A stretch of DNA of 32,000 bases, taken from contig NC_003272.1 of assembly GCF_000009705.1 (NCBI RefSeq), forward strand, positions 4,440,001 to 4,472,000, read 5' to 3'. Below are positions 11,988 through 30,792 of the stretch, piece by piece (position 1 is the stretch's first letter; each line of letters opens with the position of its first letter). The translations under genes were made by a program, and so were the position numbers. The notes beneath the pieces were generated by a model that made no database searches, had not been told where the DNA came from, and saw only the letters and a list, made by a program, of their open reading frames with translations. Source of the DNA: Nostoc sp. PCC 7120 = FACHB-418. Its GTDB lineage: Bacteria > Cyanobacteriota > Cyanobacteriia > Cyanobacteriales > Nostocaceae.

Positions 11988-14900
11988 TCAATATTTATTG
12001 GCGCTTTCTGCTGTTATAGGAAAGATAATCACAAATTCAGTGCCTTGACCTAGTTGAGAATTGACCTCTATTGCTCCGCCATGCTTTTCTACAACAATTT
12101 GACGAGCGATCGCTAGTCCTAATCCTGTACCTTTCTCTACACCTTTGGTCGTAAATAAATGCTCAAATATATGTTGTTTTAACTCTTCACTCATACCGAT
12201 ACCATTATCAGTAATAGAAATTCTGACGTGGTTATTTACTTGGGTGGTACGAATTATAATGCGGTTATTGTTCGCTGTAATTTCTGCATAACTCAAACCA
12301 TTATTTGCGTCTTCTAAAGCATCAATGGCATTTGCTAAGATATTCATAAATACCTGATTTAATTGTCCAGGAAAGCATTCAATGTGGGGTAAATTACCGT
12401 ACTCAGTTATTACCTCAATCGCTGGACGTTTGTCGTTAGCTTTCAATCGATGTTTCAAAATTAAAATGGTACTATCGATACCTTTATGAATGTTAAAAGG
12501 TATTTTGTAATCTTTATCTGCTCGTGAAAAAGTGCGAAGACTAGTGCTGATATTTTTTAGGCGATCGCACGCCATTACCATCGCCTCAATTAACTTGGGT
12601 AAGTCTTCTAAGATGTAATCTAAGTCAATTTGTGCGGCATGATGGAGGATTTTATCTCCGGGATGGGGCAGACTTTCTTGATATAGTTTCAAATGCTCCA
12701 TAATATCAGCAAAAGTGGGTTGAGTATGTTGCAAGCTGACGGCAATAAAGCCCAATGGATTATTCATTTCATGAGCTACCCCTGCAACTAAATTACCCAA
12801 TGCAGACATTTTTTCATTCTGTACTAACTGAAGTTGGGTTTGCTGGAGATGTTGCAGTGTGTGTTCTAGTTGGGTGGCTTGTTTTTGCGTTTGGATTAAT
12901 AAGTCTGTTTGCTTAAGGGCAATACCCATTTGCGCGCCGACTTGCTGGGCAAATTGCATTTCCAATGGTTCCCATTGACGAGGGCGATCGCATTGGTGAA
13001 TACAGAGTAGTCCCCACAGTTCTTCTTCCTGCATAATTGGTACTACCAATGATGCTCTAACATGGAACTGTGCCAAAATTTGCCGATGACAATCTAAAAT
13101 CTCCGATGATTGTACATCGGTTATTGCACAGATGCGTCCCTGTTTATAGAGGTTGGCATAGTTTTCACCAAAGCAGTGATCTTGAACTTTGACTGCTAGA
13201 GCAGAAGGAAACGCAGGTGATACATCTTCGGCGACAAACTCGCCATATTCATAATTTACATCTAGGTGAAACTGATAGATTCCCACCCGATCAACATCGA
13301 GAATACGACGAATATTTTGGGTAACTACGCAGAAAATAGCATTCAAGTCTAAAGACTGGCGCATCTGATTAACAACATTAAACAAGATTTTCTGTTGTTT
13401 GAGGGATTGTTTTAGCTGTTGAGCTTTTGTTTGAGATTCTTGATAAAGACGAGCTTTTTCTAGAGAGACTGCGGCTTGGGCAGATAAGAGGCGGATCACT
13501 TCCAGGCGATCGCTAGTGAAGACTCCCCTTGTTAGTCTATTTTCTAAATAGAGAATCCCCACTAAATGCCCCTGATTCATCATTGGCGTACAAAATACGC
13601 TCTGGGGTTGATGTTGCAACATATATTCCCCAATCAGTCCTGGAATATCTGTTTGTAGATTATCTATGACAACGGTTTGTTGGGTATTTTTGACATAGTA
13701 AATAATGTTTTTGGGGATATCTTCACAAGTTTCTAATGGTTGTGATTCCAGGATAGTTTGGGTAGATTCGGAAGAATTTGGTTGGAAGTTGCTCAAAGTC
13801 ATGGCTTTGATTTGCCAAATATCTTCCTGGGGAAGCAGCAGTGCAGATTTTTTTGCCCCAGAGTTTTCTAAAATAATCTCAGTGAGATTGGTGATGAGTT
13901 CGTCTAATTCTAAGGAAGTGGAAATAACTTGAGCAGCCTTTAAGATAGAGGCAAAATCTAGGGTGTCGGAGATACTAGTACTACCTAATGTGGAACTGAG
14001 GGTAGATGAAGATGTGCCAGGAACAGCTATAGTTTCTTGAAAGTTAAATTTAAACTGTCGTTCTTGCAGAATTGGTTGGAGCAGTTGGGGATAGCGTTTT
14101 TCTAAGTCGTTAGTTTTGGCTTTAGCTTCCCAACGAGCATAGCAATAATAAGCCTCCTGCATATAAACTGCGGCAACTTTTTCTTTTCCCCAATCCAGAT
14201 AAAACTTTGCGGCAAGTTCATTGGCTAGGGCTTCGTCTCGGAGGTATTTATTTTCTTTTGCACCTTTAATTGCCATCTCATAAAATTCCATGGCCTCAGT
14301 TTTCTGTTCAAGCAGACGATGTGTTTCTGCTGCCACCAATTGCCATTTATGTAGGTAATTCATTGGTGCATGGTCTGCCCATTTGTCCAGAATTGCTTGA
14401 TTTTCTCGGACTCGTTGCCATTGACTATCTCGGCCTGCTGGTGATTGGTGAAGTTCAGCCAATGCTGTTAAGGAATCGTAGAAGTAAAAAATTGGTTCGG
14501 CTACACTCCCCATACAACCAGTTAAATACTGTCTAGCTTTTTCTGCATCTTGTTTGGCGCGAGGATCTGCTAGCAGAAAATTCAGCACCAAGCGATACAG
14601 GTAAAACTGGAATAGTCGCCACAAATCGTTAGAAGCTAGTGCTTCAGTCACAATTTTCTCGGCATAGGCATCTTGGCGTAATGAAATCTCATCAGCTGAT
14701 TTTCCTAGTAAAATCAATGCTGATTCCCAATAAACGAAACAATGATTTGCACTTGTCACCAAATTAAAGTCGAGTAACTGCTGATGATAAGTACACATTT
14801 GGGATGCAAATTCGCTCAAAGATTCACCACTCCAGTAAGCGTTCATCCCAAAATTCTGCACGTTGTAGCCAAAAAATTCCAAATTACCCGTTTCTAATCC

Positions 14901-17900
14901 TGCAATACATCCTTCTTGGATAATTGGCAGTGTGTCTTGCAGATGAGATGTGCAGTGATAGAAATATCCTCCCAAAACAATGAAAGTGGCGGCGCGAATG
15001 TTTTTGGCCTCTGGCTCCGAGGCTAGCTGGTAAGCTATTTGTCCCAACTGCTGGGCCAATGCCATGTTTTGCCATGTTGTACTCAGATGAAAGGCATAAC
15101 TCACGTAACCATGAGCAGAAAACAGACTGTTACCAAATTGCAGAGAAAGTTTCACCTGTAAGGGAACAATCAACAGATACAACAGTGAACCTGTCATGTA
15201 ACAAGCAGGGATGAGACTGCTGGAAATTTGCATGATGGCAAGTTTTTCCGGGTCTGTCATCTTCGGCAGATTGATAAATTCCCCCAGGAGGCGATCGCCA
15301 ATTAATCTGTTAATTTCCTCTCTAGCCTGCTGTACATCCTCTGGAGTGGGATGATCAGGCAAGCTGACCCCTAGTTCTTGCAAGAAGGATTTACCTGTGG
15401 CGATCGCCTCTAACAACTCATTGCGGGAGGTAAGAGCTTGGATTTTGACTTGGTAAACTTGCACCCGATCCAAGGGGCATTTGGCATGGTTAACCACCGT
15501 CTCAATCAACTGGTTCATCTGCTCAACATCCCCACACAATAAGGCAATCTCCGCCGCTAATTCATGGATGGTGAGAGTCAATTGATATTGTCGCTGCCAA
15601 GCAGTTTCACCTAAAAGTGTCATGCTTGTGTCGGCGTATTCACGACTGGCTTGATAAGCTGTTGCAGCTCTGGCTTTTTGCGCCGCATTCAGGTTGAGTT
15701 GGGCGAGTTCATCTCGTTCGCTTTGTTGTGTAATCAGTGTAATGCCGTAGTTTAACTGATTGACTATTTCAAAGATATGCTCCTCTCTAGCTGCGGGTGA
15801 GATTTTTTGTAGTAGTAATTGTCCTATGTGGTGATGGGCGATCGCCCGTTCAGCTTCTGGAATCAAACAATAGGCAGCTTGTTGCACCCTGTCATGAAGG
15901 AACTTATATGTAACAATCTCCGTAGTTTGTGCATGATCTATTTCTTGTTCTTGCCCAACAAAAAACTTATAAACTTCACTTTGAGGGATGATCAAACCTT
16001 CTTGTAATGCCTTCCATAAACAAGCCGCCGTTTTCATCGGCGATGATTCCCAAACAATTGCTAAAGTTTCTAAATCAAATTGATTGCCAATACAAGCAGC
16101 TAACTGTAATACTTCTTGAGTTGCTCGCGGCAGTCTTTTTAGTTGAGATGCCATAAAGGCAAGCACATCATCTGTCAAAGCTTGATGGTTAACTTGGGCA
16201 ATATCACACTGCCAACATCCTAAATCGTAGTTAAATTGAATTAGATTATCCTGGTGTAGTGCCTTAAGAAATTGTGTAGTAAAGAAAGGATTACCCTGAG
16301 TTTTTTGGAATACTAATAAAGCCAAGGACTGGGCTGTTTCCTCTGAACATTTAAGGGTTTCCGCTACTAATGTATTCACCTTTAATTGATTTAATGGTGC
16401 TAAATCAATCTTCTTGATAGTGCCATTATTTTTGCCAATTTCATTCACCGTTAACATTAATGGATGTGCTGGATTAACTTCGTTATCCCGATATGCACCA
16501 ATTAAAAGCAAATAACCTGTATCATTCATTAACAACTGAATTAATTTCAACGAACCAGAATCAGCCCATTGCAAATCGTCAAGAAATATTACTAATGGAT
16601 GTTCAGCACTGGTAAAGACTTGAGTGAATTTTTTAAATAATAAATTAAATCTGTTTTGTAAAGACGTACCTGATAGTTTTGGTGCTGCTGGTTGCTTACC
16701 AATAATCAGTTCTAATTCTGGTATAACTTCGATAATTACTTGTCCATTTTTACCTACAGCTTCTAGAATCTTGCTTCGCCATTGCTGAATCTGAGTATCA
16801 CTTTCTGTGAGTAATTGCCCCATTAAATTACGGAAAGCTTGCACAAATGCTGAGAAGGGAATATTCCGTTGAAATTGGTCAAATTTACCCTGAATAAAAT
16901 AGCCACGTTGACGAACAATAGGTTTATGAACTTCGTTGATTACCGCCGTTTTACCAATTCCGGAAAAACCAGCTACCAGCATCAATTCTGTAGCCCCAAG
17001 ACTCACTCTATTAAAGGCTGCTAGTAAGGTTTCTATTTCTGCTTCTCGCCCATATAGTTTGTCAGGAATAATAAAGCGATCGCATACATCCCGACTGCCA
17101 ATTGTAAAGTATTCAACCTTACCAGTTTCTTGTAATTCTGCCAGACATTTTTCTAAATCATATTTCAAACCCAAGGCATTTTGATAACGGTCTTCGGCAT
17201 TTTTTGCCATTAACTTCATCACGATCTCACCAACAACTTGGGGAATGGTTTCTTCATTTGGTAATTTCGTGCTTTCTCCTCCATTGGAGAACCTGTTAGC
17301 GTAGCGTCTCTGACAGGAGAAGGGTATTGTAAATTTATCAGGTTGTTTAGCAATATGACAATGAACCAACTCCATTGGATCATCAGTAGTAAATGGTAAT
17401 TCTCCAGTGAGTAATTCAAAAAGCGAGACACCCAGAGAATAAAAATCACTACGATAGTCAATTCCTCGGTTCATTCTACCAGTCTGTTCTGGTGATAAAT
17501 AGGCAAGAGTTCCTTCTAAAATATTAGGACTAATAATATTTTGGGTTTCTCTAGGTAGTAGAGAGGCGATACTAAAATCGATTAATTTAACCTGTTTAGT
17601 TTCTGGATTAATGAGAATATTTGCAGGTTTAATATCCTTATGAATTATCCTTTGTTGGTAAATATGATGCAGAATATCTGCTAGTTGAATGGTAATAGTC
17701 AAAATTTCAGTTAAGGAAAGCGATTGCTGTTGGGCATAATCTCGTAAAGAAATGCCGCCAAAATCTTCCATCACCATTGCATAACTATTGCGGTATGGTT
17801 CCAAGCTATATAAATTGACAATGCCGGGAATCTTTAAGTTTTTAGCGATCGCATACTGGTTGCGAAACTGTAACAGTTCACTAAAGGTAGGATACTCGCG

Positions 17901-18053
17901 CTTGAGCAGTTTAATCACCACAGGTTGCTGATCTGCTTCTCTTACTGCCCGATAAACAACTGTTTTGGAGCCATGATAAATTTCTTCTAATATAAAATAA
18001 CCAGGAATTGCGATCGCCAAATCTACATACGTATTCATCTTGACTGACTCCAT
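11988..18053 (-). CDS. Multidomain sensor: Ser/Thr protein kinase - AAA/STAND ATPase - helical (TPR-like) region - 2x GAF - histidine kinase (HstK-type hybrid)
   Basis: 2021 aa. Kinase motifs are VVIKLL, HKDIKPANILI, DFS and GTLAYLSPEQ. The ATPase has Walker A GFSGIGKTAV and Walker B VIFLDDLQWAD. A long helical region precedes two GAF-like segments. The His-kinase part has the H-box VAGVAHEMNNPLGF, N-box NILANAIDA, G1 DNGIGM and G2 GTGLGLAI. Confidence 0.93.
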   Translation of the reverse strand: MESVKMNTYVDLAIAIPGYFILEEIYHGSKTVVYRAVREADQQPVVIKLLKREYPTFSELLQFRNQYAIAKNLKIPGIVNLYSLEPYRNSYAMVMEDFGGISLRDYAQQQSLSLTEILTITIQLADILHHIYQQRIIHKDIKPANILINPETKQVKLIDFSIASLLPRETQNIISPNILEGTLAYLSPEQTGRMNRGIDYRSDFYSLGVSLFELLTGELPFTTDDPMELVHCHIAKQPDKFTIPFSCQRRYANRFSNGGESTKLPNEETIPQVVGEIVMKLMAKNAEDRYQNALGLKYDLEKCLAELQETGKVEYFTIGSRDVCDRFIIPDKLYGREAEIETLLAAFNRVSLGATELMLVAGFSGIGKTAVINEVHKPIVRQRGYFIQGKFDQFQRNIPFSAFVQAFRNLMGQLLTESDTQIQQWRSKILEAVGKNGQVIIEVIPELELIIGKQPAAPKLSGTSLQNRFNLLFKKFTQVFTSAEHPLVIFLDDLQWADSGSLKLIQLLMNDTGYLLLIGAYRDNEVNPAHPLMLTVNEIGKNNGTIKKIDLAPLNQLKVNTLVAETLKCSEETAQSLALLVFQKTQGNPFFTTQFLKALHQDNLIQFNYDLGCWQCDIAQVNHQALTDDVLAFMASQLKRLPRATQEVLQLAACIGNQFDLETLAIVWESSPMKTAACLWKALQEGLIIPQSEVYKFFVGQEQEIDHAQTTEIVTYKFLHDRVQQAAYCLIPEAERAIAHHHIGQLLLQKISPAAREEHIFEIVNQLNYGITLITQQSERDELAQLNLNAAQKARAATAYQASREYADTSMTLLGETAWQRQYQLTLTIHELAAEIALLCGDVEQMNQLIETVVNHAKCPLDRVQVYQVKIQALTSRNELLEAIATGKSFLQELGVSLPDHPTPEDVQQAREEINRLIGDRLLGEFINLPKMTDPEKLAIMQISSSLIPACYMTGSLLYLLIVPLQVKLSLQFGNSLFSAHGYVSYAFHLSTTWQNMALAQQLGQIAYQLASEPEAKNIRAATFIVLGGYFYHCTSHLQDTLPIIQEGCIAGLETGNLEFFGYNVQNFGMNAYWSGESLSEFASQMCTYHQQLLDFNLVTSANHCFVYWESALILLGKSADEISLRQDAYAEKIVTEALASNDLWRLFQFYLYRLVLNFLLADPRAKQDAEKARQYLTGCMGSVAEPIFYFYDSLTALAELHQSPAGRDSQWQRVRENQAILDKWADHAPMNYLHKWQLVAAETHRLLEQKTEAMEFYEMAIKGAKENKYLRDEALANELAAKFYLDWGKEKVAAVYMQEAYYCYARWEAKAKTNDLEKRYPQLLQPILQERQFKFNFQETIAVPGTSSSTLSSTLGSTSISDTLDFASILKAAQVISTSLELDELITNLTEIILENSGAKKSALLLPQEDIWQIKAMTLSNFQPNSSESTQTILESQPLETCEDIPKNIIYYVKNTQQTVVIDNLQTDIPGLIGEYMLQHQPQSVFCTPMMNQGHLVGILYLENRLTRGVFTSDRLEVIRLLSAQAAVSLEKARLYQESQTKAQQLKQSLKQQKILFNVVNQMRQSLDLNAIFCVVTQNIRRILDVDRVGIYQFHLDVNYEYGEFVAEDVSPAFPSALAVKVQDHCFGENYANLYKQGRICAITDVQSSEILDCHRQILAQFHVRASLVVPIMQEEELWGLLCIHQCDRPRQWEPLEMQFAQQVGAQMGIALKQTDLLIQTQKQATQLEHTLQHLQQTQLQLVQNEKMSALGNLVAGVAHEMNNPLGFIAVSLQHTQPTFADIMEHLKLYQESLPHPGDKILHHAAQIDLDYILEDLPKLIEAMVMACDRLKNISTSLRTFSRADKDYKIPFNIHKGIDSTILILKHRLKANDKRPAIEVITEYGNLPHIECFPGQLNQVFMNILANAIDALEDANNGLSYAEITANNNRIIIRTTQVNNHVRISITDNGIGMSEELKQHIFEHLFTTKGVEKGTGLGLAIARQIVVEKHGGAIEVNSQLGQGTEFVIIFPITAESANKY

Positions 18054-22933: not shown

Positions 22934-24914
22934 TTAATGCGTAGATGCAGTAATCATTTCACGCTTACGGATGGTGTCCTTGGGAACCACAATTCGCCAA
23001 CGGAGAATACGATTATCTTTACTCCAGTTGTCAAAACAAGCGATCTCGGAACCTGGAGCTTGAGGATCTTCAGCAAAGGGTGGATTTTTTGCTGTAAAGC
23101 CGGACAAATACATGGTGTCACTTTCAGGAAAGTATTTGATTCGCCGTAAATCGGTAAAGATGAGGGGAGTTTTTTCCTGTTGTATGGAATTGTAAGTGTA
23201 GATGGGATTACCATTGGTATCTAGTCCTTGCAAAGGATAATGGCGTATACCTCTTCGATCGCCCAGAGTTGTCCACACATCGCCTTTACTATCCACCCAC
23301 CATCCTGTAACAGAGGAAGAATCTTCACTACGATCATATTCTTCTTTGTCGAAAGCGCCGTCACCGTTGCGATCGCGCCAAATCCATTTTCCTGTTTCTG
23401 GTTGCTCAGGTGGCCAAGTTCCTGAGATTGCTGATTTACCTCTGATATTTTTACCAACAAACATTCCTGCTGGAATAGCTATGTTGCCATCTTTGCTAGG
23501 ATTAAATCGATAAATCTCTAAGGCGTTGCTGTACGGATCTAAAAGAAACAAAAATCTTTCATCGTTAATCCGACGTACAAAGGTAGTATCGGGCGATATA
23601 TGCAGTCGTGAATCTTGAGGATATTTGAAGCCGTTTAAGGTGTAAGCTTTATAAATCAATTGCTGACCCTTAGGCTTGCTACTATCTATCAAAAATTGTT
23701 CATACTTGGTAAAAACTTCTCTTCCATCCGTTTTAGGGTCAGCGTCAGCATTTTCGACTAAGGATAATCCTAATAATCGCCATAGTTGTTTTCCTGATGG
23801 CGAAAATTTTCTTAAATCTGTGCCGGAATTATTGAACCCATTGTTATTGATATACAGATTCCCCTGAGCATCTGCGCCGACTCCTGTTAGTCCATAAAAC
23901 TTTAAATCTTGGACTTCACCAGGAACGCCTCCATAAATCCCCCCTGTGTGGCCAAAAGTGCCAACTTGGACTGGTTGATCCTGAATTTTATAAATCAAGA
24001 CTTGCTGGAGTGTCCCATTTTCTGCTACTAACAGTCTGCCTTGATTATCGAGTGCGATCGCTCCAGGTAACACAACATTAGTTATTTTTTTGCGGTAATT
24101 GTTTCCCTGATGAAGAATAACGCAAAATTTTAGCAGGGTTATTTGCATCTTGCTTTTGAATAATCCACAAATTCCCTTGTTTATCAATAGTTATATCCTC
24201 TGGTCTAAGAAAACTAAAGTTGCGTAATTCTTTCATTGTCTCAGTGTTATAGACGCGGATTTTATTATTCGCTGCATCACTGACATATAAATTCTTATCT
24301 TTCGTTGCTAATCCAGTCACTTCACTCTTGGTGTTGACGATTAACATACTCTTATCCCAGCCACGTCCATTTGCAAAGGGCGCTGGTTTACCAGATAAGT
24401 TATAACGTCTCACACAATACCAAGTTGTCCCTTCTGGTGGATAATCTTTGTCTATTTTGCCGACAAATCCTTGGCTCATAGCAATGTAAATATATTTACT
24501 ATTTGCTGTGACAGCTTTACCACCGCGACGACTCCAACCATCAAGATCACTGAGAACACCAATCACATTACCATCTTTATATATTGATGCTTCGGCTCCT
24601 GCTTTATCCTCATGACTATTTGTATAAACTGTGCCATTAGGCGCAACATATATTCCCTCAATATAGTTTTGTATAGATTTCTGACTATCGGCAAAAATAT
24701 CGCCCATCAAATCTTTTTTATCAGAATTTTCCGCAACTTCACTCAATGTTAAATCTGCGGTAATAATAGTGATAGCCAGAAATGAAATTATAGCAATAAT
24801 TAAAAATATCCATGATTTTAGAAGTCTATAACTTAAATATTTAAATATTTTATTAGATTGTTTTTTTGCCCTAGACTGTAACCTTTTGAATTCATCTAAT
24901 ATTTCGTGTTTCAT
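22934..24914 (-). pseudogene. Membrane-anchored beta-propeller (NHL-like repeat) protein, split by a +1 frameshift in an A7 run
   Basis: Two overlapping minus-strand ORFs, 24078..24914 (278 aa, N-terminal TM anchor) and 22934..24187 (417 aa). Both carry the same repeat type: ITIDKQGNLWII...ILRYSSSGKQL, then IALDNQGRLLVAENG and GADAQGNLYINN...LRKFSPSGKQLW. The frames join at CCGCAAAAAAATAAC (T7 on the plus strand, 24085-24091). Removing one A gives a continuous ...SSSGKQLPQKITNVVLPGAIALDNQG.... A DRNGDGAFDKEEYD calcium-binding-like loop is also present. Confidence 0.7.
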
Positions 24915-28307: not shown

Positions 28308-29814
28308 ATGACAACCTTCCTGACAGACTCCACTGACATCAATAGAATTAATTTCTCCTCAAGACTGAATTTGCATCGTCGCAGAGAACTAGGACAGTTT
28401 TTAACTCCTGCACCACTAGCCCGTTTTATGGTGGGACAATTTAATAGTCTATTGGGTCATATTAGTCTTATAGATCCTGGTGCTGGGGTTGGATCATTAA
28501 CTGCTGCCTTTGTGGAGCGACTGTTGGCAAATTCTCATGAGGTTAAGAGTTGCTTTATTACAGTATATGAAGTTGAACCCATATTTATATTACCTCTAAA
28601 GCAATGCCTTATAGATTGTTGCACCGCTTTAGAAAATAAAGGAATTGCCGCTAATTATTGTTTGTATGAAAAAAACTTCATTGATGCTAATAGTGAAATA
28701 AATTTACCCCTATTATCAACATCTGCCATCAATTTTACCCATGCAATTATCAATCCGCTATACAAGAAGATAAATAACAAATCAATTGAAAAGAAAATAA
28801 TTTCTCAAATGGGAATTGAGACTGTAAATCTATATAGTGCATTTGTTTGGCTGACTATTTTACGACTAGTTGAGGATGGAGAGATAGTTGCAATTACTCC
28901 CAGAAGTTTCTGTAATGGGAGTTATTTTAGACATTTCCGTAAATCTTTTTTAGAACAGATGAAGCTGGAAAAAAATCCAAATTTTCACAAGTCGTTCAGA
29001 AGCTTTTCCGGAATATGAAATTTTACAAGAGAATATTATTTTTCATGCTATTAAAACTACAGAAGATCGTAGTTACGTAGAGATTACTAATAATTTGGAA
29101 GCCCAATCAGATGGGATTTTAGAATTAAGAAATATTCCCTACAACGAAGTTGTGAATGAGAATGATTCAGACAGTTATATTCATATTATTACAAACTCTC
29201 TAGAAGATTCATTGCGAGTGCAAATGGATCAATTCTCATCTACCTTAGATGAACTTGGGTTAGCAGTGTCAACGGGGCCAGTTGTAGATTTTCGCCTCAA
29301 ATCAGCTTTGAGAAATTATGTGAATGAGGAAACTGTTCCATTACTTTACCCAGAAGCAATAAAAACAGGGAAAGTTTTATTTCCGCCAAAAAAGCCGCGT
29401 AAGTCCATCGCCATTGTACAAAATCAAGAAACAGACAAATGGCTAATTCCATCAGGTTGGTATGTTTTGACGAAGCGATTTTCTGCTAAAGAAGAAAAAC
29501 GGCGGGTTGTTGCTGCTGTATGTTCTCCTGTAGATGCACCAGTGTTGGGCATAGAAAATCACCTCAACTACTACCATTCTCAAGGTGAGGGAATGAATCC
29601 CGACCTGGCACGAGGTTTAGCAGCATTTCTCAGTTCAACTTTATTGGATAGTTACTTCCGCCTATTCAGTGGACATACACAAGTAAATGCAACGGATTTG
29701 CGTAGAATTAAGTATCCTTGCAAAGATGATTTAATCAAGCTAGGTAGTCAAATTGGTGATTCTTGCCTTGATCAGGCTCAACTTGATACGGTTGTACATA
29801 AAACTCTATCGATT
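28308..29814 (+). pseudogene. N6-adenine DNA methyltransferase, PstI/BsuBI (Eco57I-like gamma-class) type, interrupted by a +1 frameshift in an A7 run
   Basis: Motif X is GQFLTPAPLARFMV, motif I is LIDPGAGVGSLTAAF, and motif IV reads INPLYKK (NPLY instead of NPPY). The frame stops at 29018. The continuation KIQIFTSRSEAFPEYEILQENIIFHAIK... and the TRD part (...VNATDLRRIKYP) are in the +1 frame, which is open from 28963. The A7 run at 28969-28975 is the only homopolymer in the overlap, and A6 would restore one frame. Confidence 0.75.
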
Positions 29815-30792
29815 ATGAGCGAGGCAATAAAGGCAGTTCTGGCTGCTAAACGAATTGAGGAGGCGTTGGCAATTCTTAAAGATATTTCTGCTCCCAAAGA
29901 GCAACAGAACGAGCGTTCAGCACTTTTCTTACTTGCATTGGCAGATATTCGTCCGGAAATTCCTTGGACTCAAGCTACATCACCAAGACGCAGAATTACA
30001 GAAATGATGGATTGGTTTCGTGATCACTATGGTAAACAATACGCACCGAATACACGCGAAACAGTCAGACGGCAGACGATGCACCAGTTTGTGCAGATGG
30101 GGATAGTTGTTGAGAATCCAGATCAACCAGATCGACCGATTAACAGTCCCAAATGGTGTTATCAACTTCATCAACAATTTGTGACACTGCTTAAATCATA
30201 CGGTTCCGAGCAGTGGGAAGAGACTCGTCGTAATTATGTTATTTCAGTTAAAAACTTATTGCAGGACAGAAATCGAAATATCCCGATGATTCCCGTAAGT
30301 TTGCCTAACGGTCAAGCAATTCAACTATCATCAGGTGGACAAAATATATTGATTAAAGAAATTCTGGAAAACTTTTGTCCCAGATTTACACCTGAAGGTT
30401 TAGTTCTGTTTGTAGGTGATGCTGGAAATAAGTTTATTGTTAATGAGACTCAGAAGTTTCGAGAAATTGGGATCGAGTTAGATCCTCACGGTAAGATGCC
30501 AGACATTGTGGTTTACTACGAACGGCAAGAGTGGCTTGTCTTGATAGAAGCGGTGACTAGTCATGGTCCGGTCAATCTAAAACGTCGCAACGAATTAAAG
30601 CGGCTCTTTCAATCTAGCCGTCAGGGGTTAGTTTTCGTTACTGCTTTCCCCAGTCGCAAGGAAATGACTCGCTATCTTGCTGAAATCTCTTGGGAGACAG
30701 AAGTTTGGGTAGCAGCTCAACCTGATCACATGATTCATTTCAATGGAGAAAGATTTCTGGGACCCTATGAAGACCGAGAAAATAGGTTTTGA
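29815..30792 (+). CDS. BsuBI/PstI-family restriction endonuclease module, in frame with the upstream methyltransferase part (no intervening stop)
   Basis: 325 aa counted from the internal ATG at 29815 (MSEAIKAV...). It has family-typical blocks over its full length: ERSALFLLALADIRP, YAPNTRETVRRQTMHQF, ENPDQPDRPINSPKWCY, and the C-terminal PDIVVYYERQEWLVLIEAVTSHGPV...VFVTAFPSRKEM...ISWETEVWVAAQPDHMIHFNGERFLGPY. The tracked ORF 29095..30792 contains both the methyltransferase C-terminal half and this module. Confidence 0.75.
   Translation: MSEAIKAVLAAKRIEEALAILKDISAPKEQQNERSALFLLALADIRPEIPWTQATSPRRRITEMMDWFRDHYGKQYAPNTRETVRRQTMHQFVQMGIVVENPDQPDRPINSPKWCYQLHQQFVTLLKSYGSEQWEETRRNYVISVKNLLQDRNRNIPMIPVSLPNGQAIQLSSGGQNILIKEILENFCPRFTPEGLVLFVGDAGNKFIVNETQKFREIGIELDPHGKMPDIVVYYERQEWLVLIEAVTSHGPVNLKRRNELKRLFQSSRQGLVFVTAFPSRKEMTRYLAEISWETEVWVAAQPDHMIHFNGERFLGPYEDRENRF

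Follow-up and report, generated by a model that had tools for sequence, protein, structure and literature searches.

In the PstI restriction-modification system, the genes for the DNA methyltransferase (M) and the restriction endonuclease (R) are separate and divergently transcribed. BsuBI is listed as a head-to-tail system, and systems of that arrangement have been predicted to yield fused type IIC derivatives (PMC3039593). For the R.SdaI subfamily, Orlowski and Bujnicki (2008) described methyltransferase domains in one or a few members, which they read as independent translational fusions of operon partners (PMC2441816). Here we analyze a locus of this fused kind at positions 28308 to 30792 of a stretch of 32,000 nucleotides from the chromosome of Nostoc sp. 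PCC 7120 (NC_003272.1, positions 4,440,001 to 4,472,000; hereafter the window, to which all coordinates refer). The comparison with its relatives makes it very probable that the locus is a fixed, evolutionarily young frameshifted pseudogene of a widespread single-gene restriction-modification element, in which a gamma-type N6-adenine methylase at the N-terminus is joined by translational fusion to a complete BsuBI/PstI/SdaI-type nuclease.

As sequenced, the locus encodes two co-directional open reading frames (ORFs) on the plus strand, where all of its features lie, and no single-chain protein. ORF A (28308–29018, frame 0; BAB75399.1) specifies 236 amino acids (aa), an N-terminal methylase fragment that matches the Pfam family Eco57I with an E-value of 1.4e-7; its residues 1–221 are authentic, and beyond them come 15 residues read out of frame, up to a TGA stop at 29016–29018. 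The second frame, displaced by +1 (28963–30792), is open up to the stop at 30790–30792 and encodes the C-terminal, target-recognition part of the methylase, a helix-turn-helix (HTH) domain and the nuclease domain. It has been called as a 565-aa ORF from TTG 29095 (ORF B, WP_231865479) or as a 546-aa ORF from GTG 29152 (BAB75400). The point at which the frames switch is a run of seven adenines (A7, 28969–28975), in which a one-base insertion relative to the functional frame turns GAA AAA ATC into GAA AAA AAT C. Removal of one A joins both ORFs into an uninterrupted protein of 827 aa, in agreement with a first-pass annotation made from the sequence alone, which had placed the frameshift at this run and estimated about 828 aa. 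Across the junction the corrected protein (LEQMKLEKIQIFTSRS) is colinear with intact relatives (LEKMGLKKIHIFESRS) and free of gaps, and its full-length matches score up to 1545 bits, far beyond chance. The 236-aa and 565-aa products match BAB75399.1 and WP_231865479.1 exactly, identical sequences are also found in Trichormus variabilis NIES-23 and Anabaena sp. FACHB-709, and the two genes are probably alr3700 and alr3701, by accession arithmetic.

A Pfam search of the corrected translation bore out the family assignment that had been proposed for both halves. The Eco57I methylase domain (PF07669) covers residues 123–232 (E 1e-7; 32.5 bits against a cut-off of 25.3), BsuBI_PstI_RE_N (PF17728) residues 514–651 (E 8e-58; 194.7 bits against 27; profile positions 2–139 of 140), and BsuBI_PstI_RE (PF06616) residues 661–814 (E 2e-66; 222.6 bits against 27; profile positions 1–154 of 154). 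With NCBIfam, the corrected protein matched only the Alw26I/Eco31I/Esp3I adenine methylase family, and that below threshold. The junction between the M and R parts contains no stop codon, the single ORF of the PCC 7120 copy being broken upstream of it by the frameshift.

The corrected architecture is shared by a large number of intact proteins. Searching 5.8 billion clustered proteins with the corrected sequence retrieved more than 120 uninterrupted proteins of 820–830 aa (a few of up to 901 aa), with the same three Pfam domains and 70–81% identity over 99–100% of the query. They come from Fischerella, Nodularia, Anabaena, Nostoc, Dolichospermum, Microcoleus, Leptolyngbya, Phormidesmis, Pseudanabaena and many metagenomes, and are named at NCBI either 'BsuBI/PstI family type II restriction endonuclease' or 'Eco57I restriction-modification methylase domain-containing protein'. 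Screening a single genome per species yielded 206 relatives, and intact ORFs of at least 800 aa are present in 64 of the 80 loci that were fetched. Full-length fusions at 45–49% identity also occur in Chloroflexota, Acidobacteriota, Planctomycetota, Deltaproteobacteria and Clostridia. When the nuclease module was searched against a library of 50%-identity representatives (2643 relatives), 22 of the 86 representatives with a full-length module (50% clustering) proved to be fused and 58 to be stand-alone, the two forms being intermingled in a rough neighbour-joining tree. The M-R fusion, which the first-pass annotation regarded as unfamiliar for this nuclease family, is therefore not a new architecture, having been noted in 2008, but the normal and already annotated form of the gene family. 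Our literature searches found no biochemical characterization of the fused single-chain family.

The fusion appears to have arisen from operons in which M precedes R. The closest stand-alone nuclease, of 322 aa and 54% identical to the PCC 7120 R half, belongs to a metagenomic pair (L092); its gene immediately follows that of a 502-aa methylase with an Eco57I domain, which shares 41% identity with the PCC 7120 M half over residues 10–498, and the two genes overlap by 11 base pairs (bp). A plasmid-borne M-then-R pair, about 47% identical over 94–99% of the fused protein, has matches in 130 plasmid records, among them ones from Pseudomonas, Aeromonas, Xanthomonas and Vibrio, and in Komagataeibacter pKNA10, the sole plasmid inspected (WP_275881163/WP_275881162), the overlap is 4 bp. 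Since the M and R genes overlap by 4–11 bp, a small indel at the junction suffices to fuse them, and the fusion would be the expected product of such an event. The divergent gene order that had been taken as the starting point for both PstI and BsuBI is thus not correct for BsuBI, and the split relatives found here are arranged M-then-R. Some Nostocales carry a second, divergent type of fused gene (Cylindrospermum NIES-4074, L067; Anabaena catenula, L075; Anabaena azotica, L080), which is 46–47% identical to the main cyanobacterial clade and groups by identity with the non-cyanobacterial fusions. This distribution suggests that the fused gene may have been acquired separately within the Nostocales.

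The frameshift itself is constant within the lineage. All 10 of the 10 lineage records carry A7 in a 2.6-kb region that is 99.96–100% identical; these finished chromosomes, draft genome, metagenomes and Logan assemblies include the Sanger-era PCC 7120 genome (BAB75399), NIES-23 (AP018216), CP183817, DOPZ01000001 and several independent metagenome or Logan assemblies. The index of the assembly collection lists the 236-aa frameshift product in 151 blocks, and no A6 form was found among the 12 members of the 90% protein cluster, nor any A6 version among 15 billion proteins. The sole 827-aa member of that cluster (P0129, from L094, a 6928-bp contig of JGI 3300014713) keeps A7 and has lost a further T at window position 29004, 29 bases past the run, which restores an 827-aa ORF with 11 out-of-frame residues. 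As this contig is gappy, with runs of N and an 11-bp deletion in the neighbouring glycosyltransferase gene, the extra T deletion is probably an assembly artefact, and P0129 was rejected as a natural revertant. Intact relatives have in-frame runs of A4 to A8 at the homologous site, with A8 in L040, L002, L052 and L014 and A7 in L001 and L004, in both cases in Lys-Lys-Ile codons; the tract is thus an ancestral, slippage-prone mutational hot spot rather than a designed switch. An internal control is provided by the T7 run at 24081–24087 of the window, which is T6 in T. variabilis NIES-23 (L082). Because another homopolymer in the window does vary between strains, variation at A7 would have been seen. 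The T7 run spans the minus-strand ORFs 22934–24187 and 24078–24914 and represents a second homopolymer frameshift in the window, polymorphic within the lineage: a single 659-aa NHL-repeat protein is called there in NIES-23, and pieces of 379/417 aa and 278 aa in PCC 7120-type sequences.

In the methylase half, the motif order X, I, IV (FLTP, DPGAGVG, NP.Y) is that of gamma-class N6-adenine methyltransferases. The motif X region LGQFLTPAP (residues 28–36, 28389–28415) and the S-adenosylmethionine-binding loop DPGAGVGSL of motif I (residues 56–64, 28473–28499) are intact. Motif IV (28752–28763) is degenerate and departs from the catalytic consensus (D/N/S)PP(Y/F/W): as noted at first pass, it reads NPLY (N149-P150-L151-Y152, with Leu151 encoded by the CTA codon at 28758–28760) where the family has NPPY. 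We found NPPY in 63 of 63 locus-derived relatives and, of the top 120 homologs, in all 114 whose motif IV was identified, so that NPLY is unique to the PCC 7120 copy among the relatives compared. Nor is there an uninterrupted polypeptide uniting the catalytic and target-recognition parts, as the frameshift at codon 222 leads to the stop at 29016–29018 and leaves the C-terminal half with the target-recognition region (corrected residues 223–502, 28976–29814, with an overall identity of 41% to the stand-alone 502-aa methylase) in the other frame. Sequence searches of the PDB with the methylase half returned nothing significant. An AlphaFold2 model of the Fischerella thermalis relative (P0002), built from a 24-sequence alignment, had a mean predicted local distance difference test score of 61, falling below 50 in the target-recognition region, and a predicted template modelling score of 0.39, a quality too poor for fold searches.

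The nuclease half forms a module of 325 aa beginning at the internal ATG of Met503 (29815–29817), a size and a start that the first inspection had recognized. This methionine is invariant in the cyanobacterial clade and corresponds to the start position of the family's stand-alone R genes. The module comprises the N-terminal HTH DNA-binding domain (residues 514–651, 29848–30261) and the PD-(D/E)XK nuclease domain (residues 661–814, 30289–30750), and it aligns with SdaI (PDB 2IXS) from end to end (query 11–319 to chain 11–322), with E-values of 3e-72 for the single sequence and 1e-83 for the family profile. The acidic core is kept, Asp732 (30502–30504) and Glu747 (30547–30549) being equivalent to Asp233 and Glu248 of SdaI; it is conserved in nearly all of 64 aligned fused sequences, a single one having Asp in place of the Glu. 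Where SdaI has Lys251, the fused clade has Thr (EAVTSHG). That this substitution leaves the nuclease dead across the fused family was considered and rejected, as EAVTSHG is also common in stand-alone members and migration of the catalytic Lys has been described for the R.SdaI subfamily (PMC2441816).

By Pfam and by the SdaI alignment, ORF B belongs unambiguously to the SdaI/BsuBI/PstI family. Since alr3701 has been listed among three type II R genes, its identity with R.AvaIII (ATGCAT) was also considered, and was discarded because AvaIII represents a separate family of unknown fold (PMC2441816). Equally, the locus is not the 'inactive AvaIV' of Matveyev et al. (2001), as M.AvaIVP is a 5-methylcytosine enzyme with the predicted site GCTNAGC (PMC8112702).

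These observations can be accommodated in a simple scheme. In the intact relatives, methylation and cleavage of a shared site presumably reside in one polypeptide and, with M placed first, the nuclease is translatable only once the methylase has been. The PCC 7120 lineage has gained one base in what was an A6 run and is now A7; the frame is thereby lost at codon 222, and translation ends at 29018. A single event of this kind would silence the methylase directly and the fused nuclease through polarity. The methylase also carries P151L in the catalytic NPPY motif. From these sequence features we infer that the PCC 7120 copy has lost its activity.

The pattern of substitutions is consistent with a recent loss. 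At columns invariant in 46 intact members of the clade, the PCC 7120 copy has five private changes (L55I, P151L, N442S, C540F and Y701F), compared with a median of two and a maximum of five in those relatives. Because this excess is modest and the gene is otherwise clean, the inactivation is likely to be recent. N442S is missing from NIES-23 and hence varies within the lineage, as drift following inactivation would lead one to expect; it would therefore have arisen after the frameshift, if the order of the mutations is read from their distribution. Among the three alternatives offered by the first-pass annotation, a decaying restriction-modification system is thus the one that gains support.

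Damage is also seen in 13 other cyanobacterial copies (L041, L043, L045, L046, L048–L051, L054, L055, L057, L074 and L078), in all of them at or beyond residue 481. Truncations, deletions, an insertion, stops and a frameshift have struck 11 of the 13 at residues 633–686, the boundary between the HTH and nuclease domains, with both methylase and HTH open, which looks like repeated conversion to orphan methylases or like a structural hot spot. The PCC 7120 copy is the only one of the 14 damaged cyanobacterial copies to be broken in the methylase. A two-gene system that loses M before R normally kills its host. Where M comes first in a fusion, a methylase-side frameshift would be survivable because translation also ends before R, and this property may account for the position of the break in PCC 7120.

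The recognition site of the family can be approached through the depletion of palindromes. CTGCAG does not occur in the 32-kb window, where a maximal-order Markov model predicts 7.2 occurrences, and it is found 4 times against about 188 expected in the 820 kb flanking intact cyanobacterial copies (L001–L061), ranking third of 64 palindromic hexamers. The same flanks contain 0 GCATGC (58 expected), 0 GTCGAC (77 expected) and 5 TTCGAA (129 expected), and ATGCAT, the AvaIII site, occurs once in the window against 5.7 expected. The depletion of CTGCAG is real yet not specific, and we rejected it as proof of specificity. CTGCAG-type specificity is also that of the cyanobacterial enzyme AplI (PMC5741684). 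The family would be predicted to recognize CTGCAG or a close variant, as PstI, BsuBI and AplI do, a specificity with which the depletion fits.

Several points weigh against the interpretation of the locus as a pseudogene. The nuclease half shows no stop, frameshift or active-site change, ORF B remaining a 565-aa open frame, and residual expression may start at TTG 29095, GTG 29152 or ATG 29815. If tRNA-Lys slipped by +1 on A AAA AAA U, or RNA polymerase on A7, traces of full-length protein could arise. The excess of private changes is small, as five are equalled by three intact relatives, and relaxed selection is not statistically demonstrated. Finally, the CTGCAG depletion is non-specific, GCATGC, GTCGAC and other palindromes being equally depleted.

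The first of these points leads to an alternative to which we assign a small probability: ORF B or the 325-aa module would be active as a solitary nuclease, tolerated by a host that has almost no target sites or protects them with another methylase. The uninterrupted nuclease half, the preservation of the invariant core including Asp732 and Glu747, the match of Met503 to the start of stand-alone R genes, the absence of CTGCAG from the window and the selection of alr3701 for deletion in a restriction-deficient host strain (PMC12002296) all speak for such an activity. However, ORF B lacks an ATG start ahead of residue 44 as well as a recognizable ribosome-binding site, and the internal Met is also present in intact relatives and hence marks no lineage-specific adaptation. 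An active unprotected nuclease is, moreover, normally lethal where any site remains, and C540F and Y701F, private changes at invariant positions of the R half, could already disable the enzyme. Elhai and colleagues, in 1997, reportedly gave AvaI, AvaII and AvaIII as the only activities of PCC 7120. PstI is said to have been used by Bancroft and colleagues in 1989 to cut the PCC 7120 chromosome for physical mapping, which would mean that unmethylated sites exist in this strain. A search of the accessible literature found neither a PCC 7120 methylome nor the PstI map.

A slim chance attaches to a leaky or attenuated system, in which +1 ribosomal or transcriptional slippage on A7 would provide low levels of the full-length M-R protein. 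A slipped tRNA-Lys would re-pair perfectly and give the exact family sequence (...LEKIQIF...), and the 1.8 kb downstream form a clean open frame with all conserved nuclease residues. Yet no stimulatory element is evident around the run: the next codon in frame 0, AAU, is neither a stop nor obviously rare, and there is no Shine-Dalgarno-like sequence upstream. An out-of-frame A7 occurs in this lineage alone, the A4–A8 runs of the relatives being in frame, so that the recoding site is not conserved, and the slippage product would still carry NPLY in its catalytic motif. It is similarly doubtful that an attenuated locus persists in the broader sense, either through such traces or through the 236-aa fragment, with its S-adenosylmethionine-binding loop, and the 565-aa product, with the target-recognition, HTH and nuclease parts, re-associating as a naturally split M-R enzyme; if it did, PCC 7120 would retain a fourth type II restriction activity, weak and of PstI type, and the inclusion of alr3701 in the restriction-deficient strain would be accounted for.

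The likelihood of a phase-variable switch, in which A6 (ON) and A7 (OFF) would control M and R together, is very slight. The frameshift does lie in a homopolymer, and several intact relatives have in-frame A7 or A8, which makes the tract mutable in principle. Nevertheless, the polymorphism in tract length expected of a phase-variable gene did not appear in the 10 records or the 12 cluster members, the one 827-aa member included, in spite of the variation seen at another homopolymer of the window, and the frameshifted protein is indexed in 151 blocks; A7 is, in addition, short for high-rate slippage, and NPLY argues that selection on the methylase has ended. A sequencing or assembly artefact hiding a true A6 and an intact gene, although homopolymers are error-prone on some platforms, is effectively refuted, since the same A7 is found in Sanger-era and independent assemblies, in 10 of 10 records of different sources and in 151 indexed blocks.

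A recent pseudogene, then, remains by far the best explanation of the locus, and its surroundings contain nothing that belongs with the element. Two GT4 glycosyltransferases lie upstream and a convergent VanY peptidase downstream, none of which occurs near any of the 80 related copies. Each neighbour family is seen in at most 8 of those 80 loci, and we found in them no partner gene or conserved synteny, from which it follows that the element is self-contained and consists of a single gene. It has moved between cyanobacteria and is not a syntenic core gene; a conserved core gene in conserved synteny was explicitly considered and rejected, the window neighbours being absent from all 80 loci. A promoter and terminator scan found fewer promoter-like sites than in shuffled controls and no informative site. 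Elsewhere in the window, a 2021-aa ORF on the minus strand (11988–18053) combines Ser/Thr kinase, AAA_16/STAND ATPase, at least two GAF and histidine-kinase ATPase domains, and belongs to a type of large, multidomain signalling protein that is frequent in Nostocales.

Altogether, the locus is an ordinary decaying defence gene of a common, annotated type that is already known, and it has little significance beyond annotation. For the annotation, alr3700 and alr3701 are to be read as the halves of one frameshifted gene, rather than as a methylase fragment and a stand-alone enzyme, and the deletion of alr3701 (PMC12002296) probably removes a pseudogene, probably without effect. The intact relatives constitute a large, highly conserved and apparently uncharacterized family of single-chain PstI/SdaI-type M-R proteins with two DNA readers, which is open to enzymologists.

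When set beside known systems, the corrected PCC 7120 protein is closest to the fused cyanobacterial proteins (Fischerella thermalis P0002, Cyanophyceae multispecies P0005 and Nodularia NIES-3585 P0008), with which it shares length, start, Met503 and the three domains; these are uninterrupted and have NPPY, whereas the PCC 7120 copy has the +1 insertion at codon 222 and NPLY. The two-gene M-then-R systems (BsuBI of Bacillus subtilis, pKNA10 and L092) have the same gene order and orientation and are homologous in both halves, but they produce two polypeptides. With the PstI system (CTGCAG), the likeness is at the level of the families, a PF06616/PF17728 nuclease with an Eco57I-type N6-adenine methylase as partner. 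Type IIG/IIC enzymes such as Eco57I, BpuSI and MmeI also unite a gamma-type N6-adenine methylase and a PD-(D/E)XK nuclease in one polypeptide. In these enzymes the nuclease is N-terminal, one target-recognition domain serves both activities, and cleavage occurs at a distance from the site. The present element differs from them in having a C-terminal nuclease with an HTH reader of its own, and hence two independent DNA-recognition modules. SdaI (PDB 2IXS), which recognizes CCTGCAGG, has the same N-terminal winged-HTH reader, C-terminal PD-(D/E)XK domain and PD...E core as the nuclease half, the differences being that it is a stand-alone protein and has Lys251 where the fused clade has Thr. The methyltransferase fusions of the R.SdaI subfamily (PMC2441816) are of exactly the same kind as the one described here; few of them were known in 2008, and they now make up about a quarter of the full-length module representatives (22 of 86).

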